A stretch of 57,522 bases of DNA from Candidatus Magasanikiibacteriota bacterium (GTDB lineage: Bacteria > Patescibacteriota > Patescibacteriia > Magasanikbacterales > UBA922). A model generated the notes under the pieces. That model worked only from the letters and a program-made list of their open reading frames with translations. It was not told the DNA's origin and searched no databases. Position numbers and translations under genes: made by a program. Location of the stretch: the NCBI GenBank assembly GCA_003510435.1, contig DOMK01000020.1, forward strand, positions 1-57,522. The letters run 5' to 3'. Shown here in pieces: positions 772 through 54,853 of this stretch (positions are counted from its first letter, which is position 1; each line of letters opens with the position of its first letter).

Positions 772-1037
772 ATTTAAAATTCTAATTTGTAAGATTAATG
801 AGCGTTGTATATAGTTTAATCAGTGGTAATAATATTTGTTAAAATCTGTTACAATCTGCTTAATCTGCTGTTTGGTGTAATTTAATAGCAGATTTGAACG
901 AATTAAAACAAATTTCAACGGATGGATGATAAAAATTGTTTTTTATTTTTTACCAAATAAAAGTATAAACAACGTTGATAATTCTAACATCTAAATTAAA
1001 CTTTATAACTTATTCCTTAATCCTTATTCCTTTGTAT

Positions 1038-5337: not shown

Positions 5338-6303
5338 ATGTTAACTGTAAAACAAATTTATGAGCTCGGGCTCAAATTGGGTATGGAAGCTGATCCAAGA
5401 GGAAAAAGGGGTGTACAAAAATATTTGGAAGCTACGAAAAAAGAATATGAAAATTTATCTGTTAAAGAGAAATTGTATTTTGATAAAAATAAACTTACCA
5501 ATCCATATGCAGATTCTCATATTCATGTGGATGATGACAAAACTCAAGTCAAACGTGTAATGGCCGGGATTGATATTGGTGGTAGTGAAATTTTATTAGC
5601 TTCTCAGCTTGGTGAACGCAAAAAACCAATTGACTTGGTAATTGCTCACCATCCTGTCGGTCGAGGATTAGCCGGGCTTCATGATGTGATGGATATGCAG
5701 GTAGAGATTTATGAACAAGCTGGTGTACCGATTCATGTGGCGGAGAAATTAATGGATAGTAGAGTAAAAGAAGTTGGTCGTAGTGTACACCCATCCAATC
5801 ATTATCAAGTAGTGCAAATGGCAGAACTTTTAAAAATCAATTTAATTAATACTCACACTTTTACAGATAATTTGGTGGCAGATTTTCTAACCAAGTTAAT
5901 GGCTAAGAGAAAACCAGATACTTTGGGTGATGTATTAGATATTTTGATGGAAATACCAGAGTATCAAGAAGCTAAACGTCAGGGAGCTGGGCCTAATATT
6001 GCAATTGGTAGTCTAAAGAGTAAAGTGGGTAGATATTTATTAGAAATGACCGGCGGAACTGAACCAGGCGATAAAGTTTATACCGAGTTATCTCGTTATG
6101 GTCTTAGTACTATTATTGGTATGCACATGAGAGAACCAAGTCATAAGGCCGCAACCGAGAGTCATATGAACGTAGTTATCGCTGGACATATTTCTTCAGA
6201 TTCTTTGGGAATGAATTTGTTTATGGATGAACTTGAAAAGAAAGGGATTGAAATAGTGCCATGCAGTGGCTTGATACGAGTAAGTCGAAATAAGAAAAAA
6301 TAA
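5338..6303 (+). CDS. NIF3/NGG1-interacting-factor-like metal-binding protein
   Basis: NPYADS, GIDI, IAHHP, HT..DN, MTGGTE, GMH, AGHISSDSLGMN motifs. Confidence 0.75.
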   Translation: MLTVKQIYELGLKLGMEADPRGKRGVQKYLEATKKEYENLSVKEKLYFDKNKLTNPYADSHIHVDDDKTQVKRVMAGIDIGGSEILLASQLGERKKPIDLVIAHHPVGRGLAGLHDVMDMQVEIYEQAGVPIHVAEKLMDSRVKEVGRSVHPSNHYQVVQMAELLKINLINTHTFTDNLVADFLTKLMAKRKPDTLGDVLDILMEIPEYQEAKRQGAGPNIAIGSLKSKVGRYLLEMTGGTEPGDKVYTELSRYGLSTIIGMHMREPSHKAATESHMNVVIAGHISSDSLGMNLFMDELEKKGIEIVPCSGLIRVSRNKKK

Positions 6304-16299: not shown

Positions 16300-17451
16300 T
16301 TATGTAGCTAATTGTTTCTTGATGTAATTGATTACTTCTTCTTCCACTTCTTTTAGTGTTTTGTTTATTATAATTGTTGAAGCTTGTTTTTTATCGCCAG
16401 CGGTTGGTTGAAATGGTTTTAAAAGTTCATGAGCATTGTGGCCTTTCACTGCTTTAAGGATTACATGAATACTTGGTTTTTCCAAATTATTATTTTGTTC
16501 ATAAAACAATAAAGTCAAACTAGCTTCGGGCGAATTGCTAATTAGTTCATCTACAATATCATAAAGTTCATTTGTTTCTGCTCCTGATCTAACAAAGTCA
16601 TCACGCGTAATAGTGGTCCAGACCAGACCAATAGATTTATCATGCTGAATATGTGATAAGGCTTGTCCCCAAAGTTTTAGAGTAGAGAGAGATCGAGTAC
16701 GATAAAGATTTTGTACAATATGATCACGGTCAGCCCCCAGGCTCATCAATTTACTAGCCAGGTTTAAAGTGTATGGTTTTATATTTTGTGTTCTAAAGCT
16801 ATGAGTATTGGCAATAATCGCTGTTAAAAGAGCCGTGGCGACTTGTTCATTTATATGTTCACTACCTATAGTTTCAAACATGTCGGCCAAAATTTCCCCG
16901 ACTGAAGTAGCCGTTGAATCAATAATATTTATTTGGCCAAAATGTTCATTACCAGCATGATTATCAATATTAATTACTGGTTTGTTATAAAACAGTTCAG
17001 TGTTGCTATCATAAATAGAACCAAGAGCAGCGTAATCTTCAGTCCCGAGTACAAAAATAATATCATATTTGAAATCAGATTGAGCGGTCCGAACATCATT
17101 GCGAGTCAAAAAACCTTGTTTAGGTGTGACAAAGATTCTTAATTTTTCATCTTTTAGGTCGTAGCTAAGTTCATGTACACCAGTTTTATCAGTATCAACT
17201 GTAATAACAAATTTTTGTAAATGAGAAAAATTAGCTTTAATTGTTTCAGCTTTTTTTAGAAATTCTAAATTTTTTGCTAGGACAAAGTCTTGGACAACAA
17301 TATCCACTCGTTTACCAATACTTTCCAAATACAAAGCCAAAGCCACACTAGAAGCGACCATATCGCCAGTACCTTCTTTATGAAAAGTAATCAAAATATC
17401 TTTTTTACCTTCCAAAAGTTTTTTGATTTGTTCGTAATCATTCAAGGACAT
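16300..17451 (-). CDS. DHH-family phosphoesterase-like protein with degenerate motifs
   Basis: ITFH..GTGD..AS, INIDNH, GQINII, ATS..E, LLTAIIANT.SF. ATG at 17451 (MSLNDY) is preferred. Confidence 0.75.
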   Translation of the reverse strand: MSLNDYEQIKKLLEGKKDILITFHKEGTGDMVASSVALALYLESIGKRVDIVVQDFVLAKNLEFLKKAETIKANFSHLQKFVITVDTDKTGVHELSYDLKDEKLRIFVTPKQGFLTRNDVRTAQSDFKYDIIFVLGTEDYAALGSIYDSNTELFYNKPVINIDNHAGNEHFGQINIIDSTATSVGEILADMFETIGSEHINEQVATALLTAIIANTHSFRTQNIKPYTLNLASKLMSLGADRDHIVQNLYRTRSLSTLKLWGQALSHIQHDKSIGLVWTTITRDDFVRSGAETNELYDIVDELISNSPEASLTLLFYEQNNNLEKPSIHVILKAVKGHNAHELLKPFQPTAGDKKQASTIIINKTLKEVEEEVINYIKKQLAT

Positions 17452-17619
17452 AAATAAAAATGGGTTTTTTAACCTATTACTCTGTTTCAAACAGAATAGA
17501 TGATTATATCAAATGTTATGTTTATTGTCAACCTAGCCAAATTCATATAATTGTGGACAAGTTTTTTGGCTAAAATTAGAGCTTTCTTGCCTTTTTGTTG
17601 AATATCTAGTAAAATATTA

Positions 17620-18102
17620 CTACTGATATACGGATTATCCGGATCAACGGATATTGTTTGGTATCTAATTAGTTTGAAGTATGATGAGGGTAAATTTACT
17701 TCATGAAGAATTATCATATAAAGTTCGTGGTATATTGTATGAAGTTCATAATGAACTTGGTTCTTATCGTAATGAGAAACAATATTGTGATAAGATAGAG
17801 TTTGGATTGAAAGAAAAAGGTCTGAAGTATGAACGTGAAAAGATATTATTACCTAGTTTTGATGGTGAACAAAAAGGTAGAAATAGAATAGATTTTATTG
17901 TGGAAGATAAAATAATTATTGAAGTCAAAGTTGTTCCAAGTTTTTCTCCAAATGATTTTAAACAATGTAAAAGATATTTAGTCAGTAGTAATAAAGAGCT
18001 TTGTTTATTAGTAAATTTTGGATTAAAATCCTGTGTTATTAAAAGAATTTTAAACCCGGATTTGTTAAATCAGTAGATCCGGATAATCAGTAATCTGTAG
18101 AT
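17620..18102. mobile_element. Candidate cassette: GxxExxY gene between inverted micro-repeat arms
   Basis: GATTATCCGGATC (17633-17645) and GATCCGGATAATC (18076-18088) form a perfect 13-bp inverted repeat, each within ACGGAT/ACTGAT-type units. Confidence 0.5.
17681..18076 (+). CDS. GxxExxY family protein (PD-(D/E)XK-like nuclease fold)
   Basis: EVHNELG..RNEKQY, RIDFIVEDKIIIEVK, Q...YL, LLVNFG; 131 aa. Confidence 0.88.
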   Translation: MMRVNLLHEELSYKVRGILYEVHNELGSYRNEKQYCDKIEFGLKEKGLKYEREKILLPSFDGEQKGRNRIDFIVEDKIIIEVKVVPSFSPNDFKQCKRYLVSSNKELCLLVNFGLKSCVIKRILNPDLLNQ

Positions 18103-20730
18103 ATGGATAAAGCTTACGAACCAAATTTATACGAAGATCAAATTTACAAACGCTGGGAAGAAAGCGGATTTTTTAATCCAGATAATTTAGAGGGCGAACC
18201 ATATTCTATTATGATGCCACCACCAAATGTAACTGGTGTGCTTCATCTTGGTCATGCTTTGGAAAATAGTTTAATGGATGTAATGGCGCGGTATCAACGT
18301 ATGCAAGGTAAAAAAGTTTTGTTACTTCCAGGGACAGATCATGCTGCTGTGGCTACTCAAGCTAGAGTGGAAAAGAATCTCATAAAAGAAGGAATGAAAA
18401 ATCCTAGAGAAGAATTAGGGCGTGATGGCTTACTTGAAAAGATTCGAGAATATGCCGAACAATCAAAAGCCACTATTTTAAAACAAATAAAAAAGATGGG
18501 TACGAGTGCTGACTGGTCTCGTCTGGCTTATACATTTGATGAAGAGAGGGGTAAGGCAGTAAATGAAGTATTTAAAAAAATGTATGATGACGGGCTCATT
18601 TATCGTGGATTTAGAGTTGTAAATTGGTCTGTAAAAGGTCAGTCAACAGCTTCTGATGATGAACTTATCTATATTGATCGCAAGGCAAAATTTTATACTT
18701 TTAAATATAGTAAAGATTTTCCTTTTACCATTGCCACGACTCGTCCCGAGACAAAACTAGGGGATACAGCGGTGGCTGTTAATCCAGATGATAAACGCTA
18801 TCAGAAATATATTGGCCAGGTTTTTGATGTAAGTTTTTGTGGGGTTGATTTGAAACTAAAAATTATTGGTGATGAACATGTTGATCCAGAATTTGGTACC
18901 GGCGCACTTGGTGTCACTCCAGCCCATAGTCCGGTTGATTTTGAAATGTATGAAAAACAAAAAGTAAAAAATGACCCAATTGGATTGATCAAAGTGATTG
19001 GCATTGATGGAAAAATGACTAGTGAGGCTGGTGTAGATTTTGTTGGTAAAACAGTGCTTGAAGCTCGTGATTTGGTAGTAGAAAAATTGAAAGCTCAAGG
19101 CTTGCTTGAGGCAGAAGAAGAAATTGAGCAAAATGTTGGCACATCTGATAGGTTTGGTGATGTAGTAGAATCTATTCCTATGGATCAATGGTGGCTTGAT
19201 GTTAATAAAGAAATTCCAAGTAGAGGAAAAAGTTTGAGAGATTTGATGAGGGAAGCTTTAACAGCGGGATTAGACGGAGATATAACAAAGAAGGTGAACG
19301 TTACCCCCGAAAGATTTACAAAGCTTTATCTGGATAGGGTGGATAATTTACGTGATTGGTGTTTATCTCGTCAGATTTGGTGGGGACATCGTATTCCTGT
19401 TTGGTACAAAGGTGAAGAAATCCAGGTTGGGGCAGAAAAACCAGACGGAGATGGGTGGGTTCAAGACGAAGACACACTTGATACTTGGTTTAGTTCAGGG
19501 CTTTGGACTTTTTCAACCCTTGGTTGGCCTGAGCAAGAATTAGACGTTAAAACTTTTCATCCTACAAATTGGATGCAGATGGGTTACGAAATTCTTTATT
19601 TGTGGTTGATGAGAATGGTTCTTATGAGTACCTACAATTTAGGTGAAATTCCATTTAAAGATGCATACATTCACGGAATGTTGCGTGATAAGGATGGACA
19701 AAAATTTTCCAAGTCATCTGGTAATGGCATTGACCCTCTAGAAGTAATAGAAAAATATGGTACTGATGCTTTGCGTTGGAGTTTATTAGGTAGTATTACC
19801 CCTGGTAACGATTCACGTTTTTATTTGGAAAAAGTAGAAGGGGCACAACATTTTGTAAATAAGTTATGGAATATTTCGCGGTTTATTATGTCTGTCATCC
19901 CGAACCCATCGCAGGGTGAAGGATCCCTTAACATTAAGACTTTAGCTGACAAATGGATTTTATCTCGCTTGTCTGTTGTTACCGAGCAAATAACTACCAA
20001 TATTGAAAAATTTCAGTTTTCACAAGCTGGAGAACTATTGCGTGATTTTACTTGGAATGAATTGGCTGATTGGTATTTGGAAATTGCTAAAATTGAGGGA
20101 GACAAAACAGAAGTATTAAACTTTATTTTAAACGCAGTATTAAAAATGTGGCATCCCTTTATGCCATTTGTGACTGAACAAATCTGGACTGAGATTTATG
20201 GCACTGAAAAAATGTTGATGGTAGAAAAATGGCCCAAATGTCATTCTGAACTTGTTTCAGAATCTTTCGAAGGATTTGAATTAATCAAAAATATTATCAC
20301 TGGTATTCGTTCACTTCGAGCAGAAAATAAAATTGAACCAGTAAAGAAATTAAATGCTTTAATTTCTGCTGGTGGTATGGTTGATTTATTCCAAGAAAAT
20401 GCTGAGATTATTAAAGTCTTGGCCAGATTAGAAAATTTACAAATTGAGAAAACAGCTGTAAAACCAGAAGGTAGTATTGGTTTTGTTGAAAGTGGTGTTG
20501 AAGTATTTGTAGATTTGTCTGGGGCAGTGGATATAGCCAAAGAAAAAGTTAGACTAGAAAAAGAAAAACAAGAATTAGACAAATATGTAAAAGGTTTGGC
20601 AGGAAAACTTGGTAATCAAGAATTTGTCAGTAATGCTCCACCAGCTGTAGTAGAGAAGGAACAACAAAAATTAACTGAAGTGAAGGATAAGTTAACTAAA
20701 ATTGAGGGACAGTTAAATAGTTTAAAATAA
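18103..20730 (+). CDS. valS: Valine--tRNA ligase
   Basis: PPPNVTGVLHLGHA, GTDHA, ATTRPET.LGD, GTGA..VTPAH, DWCLSRQIWWGH, KFSKS, C-terminal coiled coil. Confidence 0.97.
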   Translation: MDKAYEPNLYEDQIYKRWEESGFFNPDNLEGEPYSIMMPPPNVTGVLHLGHALENSLMDVMARYQRMQGKKVLLLPGTDHAAVATQARVEKNLIKEGMKNPREELGRDGLLEKIREYAEQSKATILKQIKKMGTSADWSRLAYTFDEERGKAVNEVFKKMYDDGLIYRGFRVVNWSVKGQSTASDDELIYIDRKAKFYTFKYSKDFPFTIATTRPETKLGDTAVAVNPDDKRYQKYIGQVFDVSFCGVDLKLKIIGDEHVDPEFGTGALGVTPAHSPVDFEMYEKQKVKNDPIGLIKVIGIDGKMTSEAGVDFVGKTVLEARDLVVEKLKAQGLLEAEEEIEQNVGTSDRFGDVVESIPMDQWWLDVNKEIPSRGKSLRDLMREALTAGLDGDITKKVNVTPERFTKLYLDRVDNLRDWCLSRQIWWGHRIPVWYKGEEIQVGAEKPDGDGWVQDEDTLDTWFSSGLWTFSTLGWPEQELDVKTFHPTNWMQMGYEILYLWLMRMVLMSTYNLGEIPFKDAYIHGMLRDKDGQKFSKSSGNGIDPLEVIEKYGTDALRWSLLGSITPGNDSRFYLEKVEGAQHFVNKLWNISRFIMSVIPNPSQGEGSLNIKTLADKWILSRLSVVTEQITTNIEKFQFSQAGELLRDFTWNELADWYLEIAKIEGDKTEVLNFILNAVLKMWHPFMPFVTEQIWTEIYGTEKMLMVEKWPKCHSELVSESFEGFELIKNIITGIRSLRAENKIEPVKKLNALISAGGMVDLFQENAEIIKVLARLENLQIEKTAVKPEGSIGFVESGVEVFVDLSGAVDIAKEKVRLEKEKQELDKYVKGLAGKLGNQEFVSNAPPAVVEKEQQKLTEVKDKLTKIEGQLNSLK

Positions 20731-36771: not shown

Positions 36772-38043
36772 ATGAACATAGGCATTGACATTCGTTGTCT
36801 CATGGATGAAAAACGAACAGGCGTTGGAGAGTATACTTTTGGTTTGCTTGATGCTGTATTTAAATACACCGATTCCCTGACTGCGCAGGCAGGCACTGAT
36901 TTTAAAAAAGATTATACTGATAATAAGGATCAGTTTTTTTTATTTTACAATTCAAATAAGAATATTCAAGATAATTTGCCAAAGTGGGATTATGAGAATG
37001 TACATTATATAGGATTAAATTGGCCTAACAAATTACTTAATTTGCTGTTGTGGTTGAAATTGATTAGGTTAGATAAATTGTTGTTAAGTCATCTTGAGCG
37101 AAATGACGAGCGAAAGCGAGGAATGAAGTCGAAAGATCTTATGGTTAGACAAGAAAAACAATGGGATCCTTCGACTCCGCTTCGCTTCGCTCAGGATGAC
37201 GTGATTGATGTCTGGTTTTCCCCAAATTTAAATTTCACTAATCTTTCAAAACACGTTAAACACATCCAAACTATTCACGATTTGTCTTTTGAATTTTTTC
37301 CAGAATGTTTTACTTGGAAGCGACGTTTGTGGCATTGGTTTTTAAATCCCAAAAAACAGTGCAAGCGAGCGGATATTATTTTGACTCCGTCAGAGAATAC
37401 GAAGCGAGACGTGGTGGAAAGATTTAAGATTGAAGATTTAAGATTGAAGATTTTGAGACCAGGGTTGTCGATTGACAGAGGATATAAGACAGAGGACATA
37501 AGACAGAGATATGGTTTGCCGGAAAAGTATATTTTGTTTTTAGGGACATTAGAACCACGTAAGAATGTTGAAAGTATAATTAAAGCATATAAAATGAATT
37601 ATGAATTAGGAATTAGGAATTATGATTTGGTAATTGTCGGTTCTAGCGGTTGGAAAAATATAGAGCTCTTAAAAACAATTAAAGAAACTCCAGGTGTAAA
37701 ATATATTGGTTATGTCGATGATGAGGATAAAATGGAATTATACAAAAATGCCAGTCTATTTGTTTTTCCAAGTTTGTATGAGGGTTTTGGATTGCCTGTC
37801 CTGGAGGCTATGGCCTGTGGCGTGCCAGTAATTACTTCTAACCGGTCATCACTCACGGAAGTTGGTCAAGATGCAGTTTATTATGTTAATCCTAATAATG
37901 TTAGTGAATTGGCTTCGGCCATTGATCTGATCTTGAAAAATAGTGAGTTAAAAACAAGAATGACAACTGGAGGTTTAGAAGTGGCCAAAGATTTTGATTG
38001 GCAAAAATCAGCTCAGGAGTTTTTAAGTGTAATAAAGAGCTAA
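36772..38043 (+). CDS. GT4 family glycosyltransferase carrying several in-frame repeat insertions
   Basis: IGIDIR, TGVGEY, TIHDL, GTLEPRKN, PSLYEGFGLPVLEAMACG.PV. Confidence 0.92.
   Translation: MNIGIDIRCLMDEKRTGVGEYTFGLLDAVFKYTDSLTAQAGTDFKKDYTDNKDQFFLFYNSNKNIQDNLPKWDYENVHYIGLNWPNKLLNLLLWLKLIRLDKLLLSHLERNDERKRGMKSKDLMVRQEKQWDPSTPLRFAQDDVIDVWFSPNLNFTNLSKHVKHIQTIHDLSFEFFPECFTWKRRLWHWFLNPKKQCKRADIILTPSENTKRDVVERFKIEDLRLKILRPGLSIDRGYKTEDIRQRYGLPEKYILFLGTLEPRKNVESIIKAYKMNYELGIRNYDLVIVGSSGWKNIELLKTIKETPGVKYIGYVDDEDKMELYKNASLFVFPSLYEGFGLPVLEAMACGVPVITSNRSSLTEVGQDAVYYVNPNNVSELASAIDLILKNSELKTRMTTGGLEVAKDFDWQKSAQEFLSVIKS
37088..37200. repeat. 113-nt GTCAT...ATGAC palindromic element, read through in frame
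   Basis: 15-bp terminal inverted repeat GTCATCTTGAGCGAA/TTCGCTCAGGATGAC (one G.T); inner GTCGAAAGATCT/GGATCCTTCGAC. Confidence 0.9.
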
Positions 38044-52533: not shown

Positions 52534-53466
52534 ATGTTAAACAATATGGATCAGCCGGTTTTGGCTGAATTTTTACAATCTAGTGAATGGAGTGAGTTTC
52601 AAGCGTCCACAGGTAAAAAGGTGGTAAATTTTGTTATTGATAATGTGCCGGTACAGGGTTTTGAACACAGCTTATCTTTTTTGGGGAAGTATTTGTATAT
52701 TCCTAGGTTTAAGACATCAGACTTAAGACTTAAGGATATAATTGAATATGTAAAAAAATCAGATTATATTTTTTTGAGAATGGAACCTTTGGAAGAATTT
52801 CCAATTTCCAATTTCCAATTTTCCGTAGTTAAAAACAGACAGCCTCAAACCACTTTAGTTTTGGATGTAAATAAAAGTGAAGAAGAATTATTATCATGCA
52901 TGCATACCAAAACCCGCTACAACATTCGCTTAGCAGAAAAAAAAGGTATTACAATCAGTCAAGAGAAAAATATAGATAATTTTTGGAATTTGAATCTAGA
53001 AACTAAAGAACGAGATGAATTCAAAAGCCATGAAAAAAAATATTATGAAAAAATGCTTGAATCTAATTTGAGTTATCAATTTACAGCATTTTTTGAAGGT
53101 AAACCGATTGCTAGTAATATTATATTGATTTATAAAAATACTGGCACATATTTACATGGTGCTTCTAGCAATAAATATCGAGATTTGATGGCGCCATATT
53201 TATTGCAATGGGAAGGAATAAAATTGGCCAAGAGTCAGGGCTGTAGTTATTATGATTTTTGGGGAGTCGCGCCACAATTAACCGAGGGAAGAGGTCAAGC
53301 CACATGCTTTAATAATTTTTGTTGGGAAGTTAATCATAAGTGGACTGGAGTGACTCGTTTTAAAGCAGGGTTTGGGGGACAGGTGAAGGAATATCCAGGA
53401 GGTTGTGATATAATATTAAAGCCGTTTTTTTATAAATTATATAAATTAATAAAAAAGATATTATGA
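52534..53466 (+). CDS. FemAB/FemX-family peptidoglycan bridge aminoacyltransferase
   Basis: FLQS.EW, KTRYNIRLAEKKG, YLHGAS, LLQWE.I..AK..G...YDFWG, FKAGFGG. Confidence 0.9.
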   Translation: MLNNMDQPVLAEFLQSSEWSEFQASTGKKVVNFVIDNVPVQGFEHSLSFLGKYLYIPRFKTSDLRLKDIIEYVKKSDYIFLRMEPLEEFPISNFQFSVVKNRQPQTTLVLDVNKSEEELLSCMHTKTRYNIRLAEKKGITISQEKNIDNFWNLNLETKERDEFKSHEKKYYEKMLESNLSYQFTAFFEGKPIASNIILIYKNTGTYLHGASSNKYRDLMAPYLLQWEGIKLAKSQGCSYYDFWGVAPQLTEGRGQATCFNNFCWEVNHKWTGVTRFKAGFGGQVKEYPGGCDIILKPFFYKLYKLIKKIL

Positions 53467-54032
53467 ACTTATCCTGGTCGCAAAAATTATTTTTACGCAT
53501 CAATGCTGAAATTGGCAAACGAATTTGGCTGGATAAAATCATGAAATTGGTTGCTCACTGGTTAATTTACTTGTATTTTTTTATTGTCTTGGTTTGGGGA
53601 GTAATTGTTTTGACACCAGTTGAGCTAAAATTATTCATAAAACTTCTTTTGACAGTGGTGGCTTTGAGTAATATTATTGTTTGGCTATTGGCAGTTGTCT
53701 GGCGTCACCCGAGACCAATTGAAGAATTACCCAATGTCAAAGAAATTGTTTTACCTTTGCAAACTTTTCGATCATTTCCTTCTATTCATACGATGATGTC
53801 TTTTACTTTTTTGTTTTTGACAATTTTGAGTGGAATTGGAATTTTGGGAATAATAATATTTTTCATTATTTCTGTAATTATTGCTACGGCGCGAGTGTAC
53901 GTGGGTGTTCATTATCCAAGAGATATTATTGGGGGAATATTTTTTGCTCTATTTTTTTCTGTAATCGTTTTTTGGTTATTGGAAAATGTTTCTCAGCCGG
54001 TGTATGTTTGGTTTATCAACTTGTTTAATTAA
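53463..54032 (+). CDS. PAP2-family membrane phosphatase
   Basis: RHPRP, SFPSIH, ARVYVGVHYPRDI. Confidence 0.9.
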   Translation: MNLSWSQKLFLRINAEIGKRIWLDKIMKLVAHWLIYLYFFIVLVWGVIVLTPVELKLFIKLLLTVVALSNIIVWLLAVVWRHPRPIEELPNVKEIVLPLQTFRSFPSIHTMMSFTFLFLTILSGIGILGIIIFFIISVIIATARVYVGVHYPRDIIGGIFFALFFSVIVFWLLENVSQPVYVWFINLFN

Positions 54033-54142
54033 AATATACAAATATACGGATAATACGAATTATACTAATGCTATACAAATATGCATTGCCGAATAAAATT
54101 CGTATATCATTAGTATAATTCGTAAATTTATTAGTATTATTT

Positions 54143-54853
54143 ATGAATGCTATTATTCTCTGTGGTGGTTTATCTACCAGGTTAGGTGATATCACCAAAT
54201 CAATCCCAAAAATTTTATTACAAATTGGTGATAAGACAGTTTTGGATTGGCAATTGGAAAAATTAAAAACTGTAGGTGTAAAGGAAGTGGTTTTGGCGGC
54301 TGGTCATTTGGCCAGTGTTTTAGAGGCAGAAGTCGGAATGGAAAGAAATGGTTTGGAAATTATTTATGCGATTGAAGACAAAAAACTGGGGACTGGCGGA
54401 GCGATAAAACATGGTTTGGAATATGTGTTAAGACCCGAAGAACCAACTTTTATTTTGAATGGGGACATAATGTACACTATAGATTTTTTGGATATGGCCA
54501 AATATCTAAAGGCTGGTAGTGATGGTATTATTTTGGGTGCCTATGCGCCAGATATTGCTAGTTATGGTACTTTAATTTATGATGAAACTTTTCATTTGCA
54601 TGAATTTAAAGAAAAAATGGGCGAACATAAACCAGGTTATCAAAATGGTGGTTTGTATTTGTTCAATCCCCAAGTGACAAAATATTTTCCAGATAAAGAT
54701 GAATTTAGTATTGAGTATGATGTATTTCCCAAGATGAAAGATCTCCATGTTTATGAATCAGATCGACCGTGGGTAGATATTGGTTTGCCAGAGAGGTTGG
54801 AATGGGCGAGGAGTAATTGGGAAAGATTTAAAGATCAGAAGATCAAAAAATAA
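54143..54853 (+). CDS. Sugar-phosphate nucleotidyltransferase (NTP_transferase family)
   Basis: IILCGGLSTRL....PK.L, E...LGTGGA, LNGD, W.DIG.PE. Confidence 0.88.
   Translation: MNAIILCGGLSTRLGDITKSIPKILLQIGDKTVLDWQLEKLKTVGVKEVVLAAGHLASVLEAEVGMERNGLEIIYAIEDKKLGTGGAIKHGLEYVLRPEEPTFILNGDIMYTIDFLDMAKYLKAGSDGIILGAYAPDIASYGTLIYDETFHLHEFKEKMGEHKPGYQNGGLYLFNPQVTKYFPDKDEFSIEYDVFPKMKDLHVYESDRPWVDIGLPERLEWARSNWERFKDQKIKK

Follow-up and report, generated by a model that had tools for sequence, protein, structure and literature searches.

A GxxExxY-family nuclease gene between inverted short-unit arms in the valS leader of a Patescibacteria genome: candidate copy of a mobile cassette family

Introduction

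Small genes associated with short inverted repeats are known from several systems. In REPtrons (REP/REPIN sequences together with the gene of a RAYT, or REP-associated tyrosine transposase), inverted copies of a short repeat surround a small nuclease-type gene, and this repeat is also scattered over the intergenic spacers of the genome as gene-less hairpin doublets. Free-standing homing endonuclease genes (T4 seg/mob; I-Ssp6803I) are small nuclease genes wedged between conserved genes and present or absent among relatives. To our knowledge, no such gene carries terminal inverted repeat arrays or is accompanied by gene-less hairpins. Short palindromic insertions, which fill spacers and are tolerated in frame in coding genes, are represented by MITEs and Rickettsia palindromic elements (RPEs), and the ORF-bearing IVS of 23S rRNA hold a small ORF within inverted repeats able to form a long transcript stem.

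The locus described here shares traits with each of these systems. It is part of a 57,522-nt stretch of DNA from Candidatus Magasanikiibacteriota bacterium (referred to as the window), which is AT-rich (33.8% GC) and whose ValRS relatives are Patescibacteria near Magasanik-, Uhr- and Falkowbacteria. A sequence-only reading of the window had interpreted a GxxExxY-family gene upstream of valS, with its inverted flanking arms, as a mobile cassette whose nuclease makes or moves the micro-repeat hairpins found across the window. The same reading had described the family as lacking an established function, in agreement with the full text available to us, where it appears in a family listing ("function unknown") and in incidental mentions. 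No description of an arm–nuclease–arm cassette family was found in the searchable literature.

Results and discussion

Layout of the locus

The features of the locus are collected in Table 1. The observation made by the sequence-only reading was confirmed. The perfect 13-bp inverted repeat (GATTATCCGGATC and its exact reverse complement) forms the core of two arms, each built from four T-[A/G]-C-N-[G/A]-A-T units, and the nuclease gene is the only ORF between them. The right arm runs over the stop codon, with 1 nt shared between the perfect core and TAG and 7 nt between the extended arm and the ORF end, and its unit array reaches 18100-18102, directly 5' of the valS ATG. An alternative start of the nuclease ORF at 17684 (130 aa) corresponds to the public gene call.

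Both the DHH promoter and the valS promoter are located upstream of the cassette and can be aligned with relatives, where the TTGC..-17-TA.A.T element is likewise found 5' of valS. The cassette starts 4 nt 3' of the valS -10 box and its right arm runs up to the valS ATG. Thus, the valS 5' leader contains the whole unit, which is expected to be transcribed from the valS promoter as first cistron; valS is now the second cistron, behind the cassette. A DnaA-box-like sequence (TGTGGACAA, 17552-17560) between the divergent DHH and valS promoters is kept in many relatives and reads TGTGGATAA in L057, L058 and L007. In addition, a small terminator-like hairpin is found inside the left arm at 17636-17663 (TATCCGGATCAACGGATA followed by TTGTTTGG), which could attenuate read-through into the cassette.

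Table 1. Positions of the cassette, its neighbours and related hairpins in the window
Feature	Position	Strand	Composition or evidence
DHH-family gene, conserved divergent valS neighbour	16300..17490	-	Pfam DHH; probable true start 17451
DHH gene promoter	17531-17503	-	TTGACA-17-TATAAT, perfect consensus; promoter scan
valS promoter	17587..17615	+	-35 TTGCCT 17587-17592, 17-nt spacer, -10 TAAAAT 17610-17615; consensus scan
Left arm	17619..17653	+	units ACTACTGAT / ATACGGAT / TATCCGGAT / CAACGGAT; perfect 13-nt core 17633-17645
GxxExxY-family PD-(D/E)XK nuclease gene	17681..18076	+	131 aa; PF13366 and TIGR04256 matches
Right arm	18068..18102	+	inverted units AATCAGTAG / ATCCGGATA / ATCAGTA / ATCTGTAGAT; perfect core 18076-18088
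valS (valyl-tRNA synthetase)	18103..20730	+	875 aa; Pfam tRNA-synt_1, Anticodon_1, Val_tRNA-synt_C
Gene-less hairpin, 17-nt loop	54033..54142	+	units ATACGGAT / ATACGAAT / ATACTAAT and inverted units; inverted repeat 27 nt at 93%
Gene-less hairpin, opposite orientation, upstream of ileS	834..913		CAGAT / CGAAT / CAAAT / CGGAT units; inverted repeat

The repeat extends well beyond its core. Without gaps it covers 24 nt at 88% (17629-17652 and 18069-18092), and with a single 1-nt indel allowed about 34 nt at 82% (17619-17652 and 18069-18102), i.e. four units per arm. The extent of the left arm is backed by other contigs of the source metagenome, on which this exact stretch recurs in independent copies. 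Within the 57.5-kb window, the third near-match to the GATTATCCGGATC core has two mismatches, and ATCCGGAT occurs twice, both times in the arms. The arm score of 16.5 compares with a maximum of 13.5 among 3000 random window intervals of the same geometry, none of which reached the observed value. With arms that are 82–88% complementary, the copy at valS looks like an older, fixed insertion.

The encoded nuclease

The ORF product matches PF13366 (86.5 bits, cut-off 22) and TIGR04256 (86.3 bits, cut-off 35), both with E=2e-24. PDDEXK_3 is the only Pfam match of the ORF, and an HUH/Y1 transposase (RAYT) is absent. The residues E31, D70, E80 and K82 (130-aa numbering) are invariant in an alignment of 45 homologs, indicative of an intact E..D..ExK site. 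The literal G-x-x-E-x-x-Y signature is absent and replaced by G-S-Y-R-N-E-K-Q-Y, i.e. the YxxExxY form that the sequence-only reading had pointed out. This form is common to the whole Patescibacteria clade (consensus LGxYRNEKQY); judged from the alignment, the G-to-Y exchange is a subfamily variant, compatible with membership in the GxxExxY family.

The AlphaFold model (pLDDT 92) predicts an alpha-beta protein with a minimal PD-(D/E)XK core, and the folds nearest to this model are lambda exonuclease, Cas4, RecB-type nucleases, tRNA-splicing endonuclease and Hjc (TM ~0.5). A sequence search of the PDB found no relative of the nuclease. PD-(D/E)XK enzymes cut DNA but do not join it, and any transposition of the cassette would therefore require host functions. 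The family is very large: a profile search among 1.8 billion representatives returned 8,753 GxxExxY clusters at 50% identity.

Inverted arms in homologous loci

Homologs at 49–80% identity were collected from protein look-ups and a metagenome scan, and the best inverted repeat between their flanks was scored. The null comprised 1118 further ORFs of these loci, HMM-screened for GxxExxY and scored at the ORF borders with slightly shorter flanks. When the flanks were set at the domain borders, the arm score exceeded the 95th percentile of the null in 65 of the 69 distinct loci (~94%) and the 99th percentile in 59 of them, at a median of 19 vs 7.5 in the null. Flanking inverted repeats, which the sequence-only reading had suggested looking for at other GxxExxY loci, are found in the large majority of homologous loci. 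Arms were absent around distant viral PF13366 members (30–35% identity; median 7.0 vs 7.5 in the null). This indicates that the arms characterize the cellular cassette clade and not the Pfam family at large, and that the scoring method does not find arms everywhere.

The terminal inverted repeats span 24–46 nt, with perfect arms of 35–46 nt in L060, L075 and L081. Their units follow the consensus T-[A/G]-C-N-[G/A]-A-T, are 7–9 nt long and recur mostly with a period of 8 nt. In the unit logo, position -4 is C in 95% of the units and position -3 is free. All eight units within one element carry the same variant, either GGAT, GAAT or GAAA. Such sharing goes beyond the needs of base-pairing and would be expected of iterated protein-binding sites.

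The arms of two loci (L132, 2400-3000; L136, 2070-2650) are about 96 nt long, roughly double the usual four-unit length, at 70–75% complementarity, and this cassette is accompanied by a separate gene-less hairpin 1.3 kb upstream. Moreover, a strand asymmetry was noted in the arms of 50 cassettes (L057–L151). Comparing the left arm with the mirrored right arm, G/T differences outnumber T/G (44 vs 17) and G/A differences outnumber A/G (36 vs 17), so that the right arm avoids C on the coding strand.

Empty and filled valS leaders

A scan of one genome per species yielded 56 valS loci, and 53 related loci with readable upstream sequence were compared. The divergent DHH gene upstream of valS is syntenic in ~45 relatives and an immediate neighbour (about 140–300 bp) in ~35 of them; the DHH–valS gap in the window measures 613 bp. 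A GxxExxY gene 5' of valS is absent from all 53 related loci; their leaders are empty in this respect, a state that the sequence-only reading had suggested looking for in relatives. Relative to these loci, sequence comparison identifies 17619-18102 as a 0.48-kb insertion between the valS promoter and the ATG. The arrangement is illustrated by L053, in which the valS promoter region is alignable to the -10 box and ATGGATAAA, with the same first codons as in the window, follows after 9 nt; the promoter of L053 is thus 9 nt from the ATG. The assembly of the closest relative, JAHJGG01, has an empty valS site (L001), yet a cassette is present elsewhere in it, between a HIT and a NUDIX gene (L065).

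Two of the leaders stand out. In L051, one of the 53 empty leaders, a solo five-unit array (5955-5994; CATCAAAT GCACTGAT TACCGAT TACTGAT TACCGAAT) stops at the valS ATG. In L053 (Magasanikbacteria GW2011_GWC2_37_14), a different, GC-rich insert of ~400 bp without a GxxExxY gene is located between DHH and valS (5400-5850), upstream of the conserved promoter block.

Including the window, five valS-leader cassettes were found (the others being L057, L058, L059 and L221), and 53 of the 58 leaders examined are empty. Three of the four closest homologs of the nuclease (80, 71 and 69%) are encoded immediately 5' of valS, as is a fifth (69%). The right arm abuts the valS ATG in all five cases, and the left arm follows the promoter in the window, L057 and L058 and precedes a promoter-like site in L059 and L221. 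Filled and empty hosts are intermixed on the ValRS tree and at least three changes are forced; a host clade of the window and L057 is rejected (p-AU 2e-87). For the cassette proteins, a tree with four of them as one clade (L221 left out) reached a likelihood above that of the free search (p-AU 0.72). The pair L058–L221 is 73% identical in ValRS and 70.5% in the cassettes, with different unit variants, and the pair window–L057 63% identical in ValRS and 80% in the cassettes. Distances between cassettes thus do not follow those between hosts.

Such a pattern would be expected if cassettes had repeatedly entered, or been replaced at, one preferred site. Still, as the valS cassettes possibly form one clade that branches roughly as the hosts do, they may instead derive from ancient vertical descent with many losses. 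The start of valS gives a hint of a co-conversion tract, suggestive only and not significant: over the first 25 codons, the window and L057 share 83% nucleotide identity, the highest value of any pair (77% for L001, 71–77% for all relatives), compared to 42–65% in the next six 25-codon blocks and up to 80% in later blocks.

Genomic contexts and in-frame forms

Homologous cassettes occupy about 60 different gene contexts. These include ParA|ParB, PrgI|TraC-like, HIT|NUDIX and gatA|LOG-like gene pairs, and further cassette sites were found upstream of infB, pgk and murG. The identity between cassettes in different contexts is at most 85% at the amino acid level. In all 37 distinct contexts with a co-directional neighbour pair, the cassette is co-oriented with its neighbours (p=1.5e-11). 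Median spacer lengths are as short as 60 and 52 nt, so that the arms fill the spacers; the right arm usually lies 0–5 nt 5' of the next start codon.

In addition to free-standing genes, in-frame fusions were observed: RecJ-GxxExxY in eight loci, FolD-GxxExxY in three and GxxExxY-dUTPase in two (L093, L094, L096-L098, L102, L104, L108, L122-L124, L146 and L147). Here, the arms are translated as Asp/Asn/Thr-rich linkers such as TCDTDMQINADDTDNADDTD. Loci that had seemed armless due to low scores turned out to be in-frame fusions of this kind, with arms inside the ORF. Many of the best profile matches are long proteins, and among ten of these that were scanned the domain is located inside enolase, FolD, RecG and GT1 glycosyltransferases. 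The ten embedded copies showed PDDEXK_3 and host domains only; unlike inteins, none contained a Hint splicing domain.

Gene-less hairpins and other micro-repeats

The hairpin at 54033-54142 (DNA fold z=-5.0) makes up the entire spacer between the co-directional ORFs 53463-54032 and 54143-54853. Among the other repeat hairpins of the window, this one and the hairpin upstream of ileS are the only two that use the cassette-arm type of unit. In total, the 57.5-kb window contains seven TWCNRAT arrays vs 1.4 expected.

Two more gene-less hairpins with cassette-type units were identified in the source groundwater metagenome, on contigs of matching depth. The first, on a 5428-nt contig, consists of a left-arm copy with five mismatches, 9 nt, and a perfect inverted copy of 17619-17652 (34/34). 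The depth of this contig is close to that of the window (12.2 vs 13.6 in one run, 5 vs 4.1 in another). A match of 34/34 cannot be due to chance, and the gene-bearing and gene-less forms are thereby linked within one population. The second hairpin is located on a 12050-nt contig at a depth of 14 (window 13.6). Extra arm copies were also found near the cassettes of other loci, with 15 matches vs 0 for shuffled arms. A joint in the source metagenome that skips 412 nt was traced to a separate gene-less hairpin and is hence no excision product.

The broader proposal that the nuclease stands behind all micro-repeat hairpins of the window could not be upheld. Only the TWCNRAT arrays are related to the cassette arms, and as the AAGGAAC, AAGACAT, AATTTCC and other heptamer arrays are of unrelated unit, a link of the nuclease to all micro-repeats is unsupported. 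Unrelated units of this kind are found in and 5' of ileS, with heptamer arrays at 1009-1032, 1662-1691 and 2584-2614. A (C)TTATTC x3.4 array lies just 5' of the probable ileS ATG, and AAGGAAC x4.3 (the inverse of the TTATTC array) and AAGGAGT x4.4 are read in frame within IleRS as KEQGTRNKEQ and EGVRSKEKGV. The glycosyltransferase-like ORF at 36772-38043 likewise contains in-frame arrays, namely AAGATT[T/G] x5 (37419-37453), a 14-nt unit (37474-37512) and A[T/G]GAATT (37594-37625).

Mobility and preferred reading

Presence/absence variation was not seen at two other sites (exact PrgI and ParA neighbours) among the 10 places listed for each, of 24 contigs, and the source metagenome gave no cassette-less valS contig. 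No target-site duplication was detected at the cassette borders, no filled site could be matched to an exact empty counterpart at high identity, and a tblastn search of plasmid and phage collections returned no match at E<=1e-6. Together, the lack of empty alleles, of a cassette-less valS contig and of a target-site duplication suggests that movement is slow or rare; present-day mobility of the cassettes is low or undetected. The sequence-only reading had named stable synteny with valS and armless family members as observations that would speak against a mobile element. Linkage to valS does recur (five loci), and population variation was not seen at the two other sites; on the other hand, the valS-linked hosts do not form a clade and arms are present in other members of the family.

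The idea of a mobile cassette has good comparative support from the 53 unfilled related valS loci, the arms at ~94% of the homologs, the ~60 contexts, the fusions and the gene-less hairpins. In our preferred reading, 17619-18102 is one copy of a selfish arm–nuclease–arm cassette family of ~0.45–0.5 kb that is widespread in Patescibacteria and promoterless at this site, a reading to which we assign a probability of about 0.6. The nuclease would bind the iterated units of its own arms, making these iteron-like, and the break that it introduces would be used by host repair to copy the unit, much as for homing endonucleases or REP/RAYT systems. Non-autonomous derivatives of the cassette would account for the gene-less hairpins. 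A wider proposal is put forward tentatively: the arm-bearing cellular GxxExxY proteins might be the mobilising nucleases of an unrecognised class of autonomous elements, possibly the smallest known, with foldback ends of iterated heptamer/octamer words recognized by their own nuclease, dependence on host transcription and, when in frame inside enzymes, on host translation, gene-less hairpins shed into intergenic spacers, and site-specific lineages such as the present one, homing to the site just 5' of the valS start codon in distantly related hosts.

Alternative explanations

Given the dozens of short heptamer arrays in the window, the flanking repeat might be considered a chance outcome where short tandem repeats abound in a genome. 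The random-interval test (0/3000) and the recurrence of the arm design at 65/69 homologous loci refute this origin, leaving it a negligible probability. A more serious, albeit unlikely, alternative is that the arms act in RNA: they would form a stem in the operon transcript, and processing by RNase III or another host enzyme would insulate the mRNA, with the nuclease being a free-standing homing endonuclease with another target. At the window locus, the arms would be part of the operon transcript (the left arm starting 4 nt past the -10 box), cassettes are invariably co-oriented with host genes, and the two arms pair with each other in the RNA fold of 17616-18105, in the minimum-energy and the centroid structure alike (z=-2.96). 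Moreover, the arms are still ~86% complementary across a long divergence. The type of arm mismatch argues against such a stem. Transversions account for 62% of the mismatches between arms (252 in total), changes compatible with G-U pairing show no excess on the transcribed strand (56 vs 39), and the commonest difference is a left G vs a mirrored right T at the free unit position. Based on the prevalence of transversions and the lack of G-U enrichment, recognition of the units at the DNA level by the encoded nuclease appears favoured over a role in RNA. The single variant shared by all eight units of an element is likewise not needed for pairing alone. In L059 and L221, a promoter-like TTGATT-17-TAAAAT/TAAACT sequence is located between the left arm and the ORF, which may place the left arm outside the transcript, and the fusions translate their arms as linkers. 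Finally, read coverage of the locus was zero in three metatranscriptomes of the same study.

It is also rather improbable that the nuclease is a domesticated, vertically inherited host gene with a function in repair, RNA processing or valS regulation, whose arms serve as operator or regulatory sites and whose apparent mobility reflects ancient paralogy and loss. Such a history would be consistent with five cassettes at one place 5' of valS, four of which as a single clade are not rejected, with the absence of population-level presence/absence variation at the two other sites, among the places listed, and with a well-conserved protein whose catalytic residues are intact. It is difficult to reconcile with the 53 empty leaders out of 58 and the scattering of filled hosts on the ValRS tree, with ~60 unrelated contexts and with the existence of gene-less hairpin copies. 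In-frame embedding in enolase, FolD, RecG, RecJ and glycosyltransferases is likewise unlike a dedicated host regulator.

Significance and comparison with known systems

If the preferred reading of 17619-18102 as a copy of a selfish cassette is true, a function would be assigned to the very large, function-unknown family PF13366/TIGR04256, and the known kinds of bacterial mobile DNA would be extended by a nuclease-only, repeat-ended cassette. Part of the short-repeat hairpins and of the extra domains in housekeeping enzymes of candidate-phyla-radiation bacteria would be explained as well. The window locus is informative in three respects: the cassette takes over a housekeeping promoter, with valS as second cistron; the filling of the same valS leader in non-sister hosts makes target choice testable; and the 34/34 arm match ties the gene-bearing to the gene-less form within one population.

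Among the described systems, REPtrons come close: they too have a small nuclease-type gene between inverted copies of one short repeat, with gene-less hairpin doublets of it scattered over the spacers of their genome. REPtron repeats number tens to hundreds of dispersed copies per genome; the 57.5-kb window has seven TWCNRAT arrays. The cassette differs in its enzyme, a PD-(D/E)XK nuclease instead of an HUH/Y1 transposase, in its arms of four iterated 7–9-nt units instead of one REP palindrome, and in a gene that occurs in multiple contexts, co-oriented with operons and at times translated inside host proteins. The resemblance to free-standing homing endonuclease genes comprises a small nuclease gene wedged between conserved genes, presence or absence among relatives (5 filled, 53 empty), recurrence in non-sister hosts and, for I-Ssp6803I, the PD-(D/E)XK catalytic fold; the terminal arrays and the gene-less hairpins set the cassette apart. 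MITEs and RPEs share the short palindromic insertions that fill spacers and are tolerated in frame within coding genes, but these elements are gene-free whereas the cassette has an autonomous-looking, gene-bearing form. Compared to IS elements and MITEs, it shows neither a target-site duplication nor a known transposase class, and its top cross-context identity is 85% aa. As in the ORF-bearing IVS of 23S rRNA, a small ORF is enclosed by inverted repeats able to form a long transcript stem. However, the cassette is located in an mRNA leader and not in rRNA, its arm mismatches lack RNA-type compensation, and the IVS ORF encodes a four-helix-bundle protein of another family.
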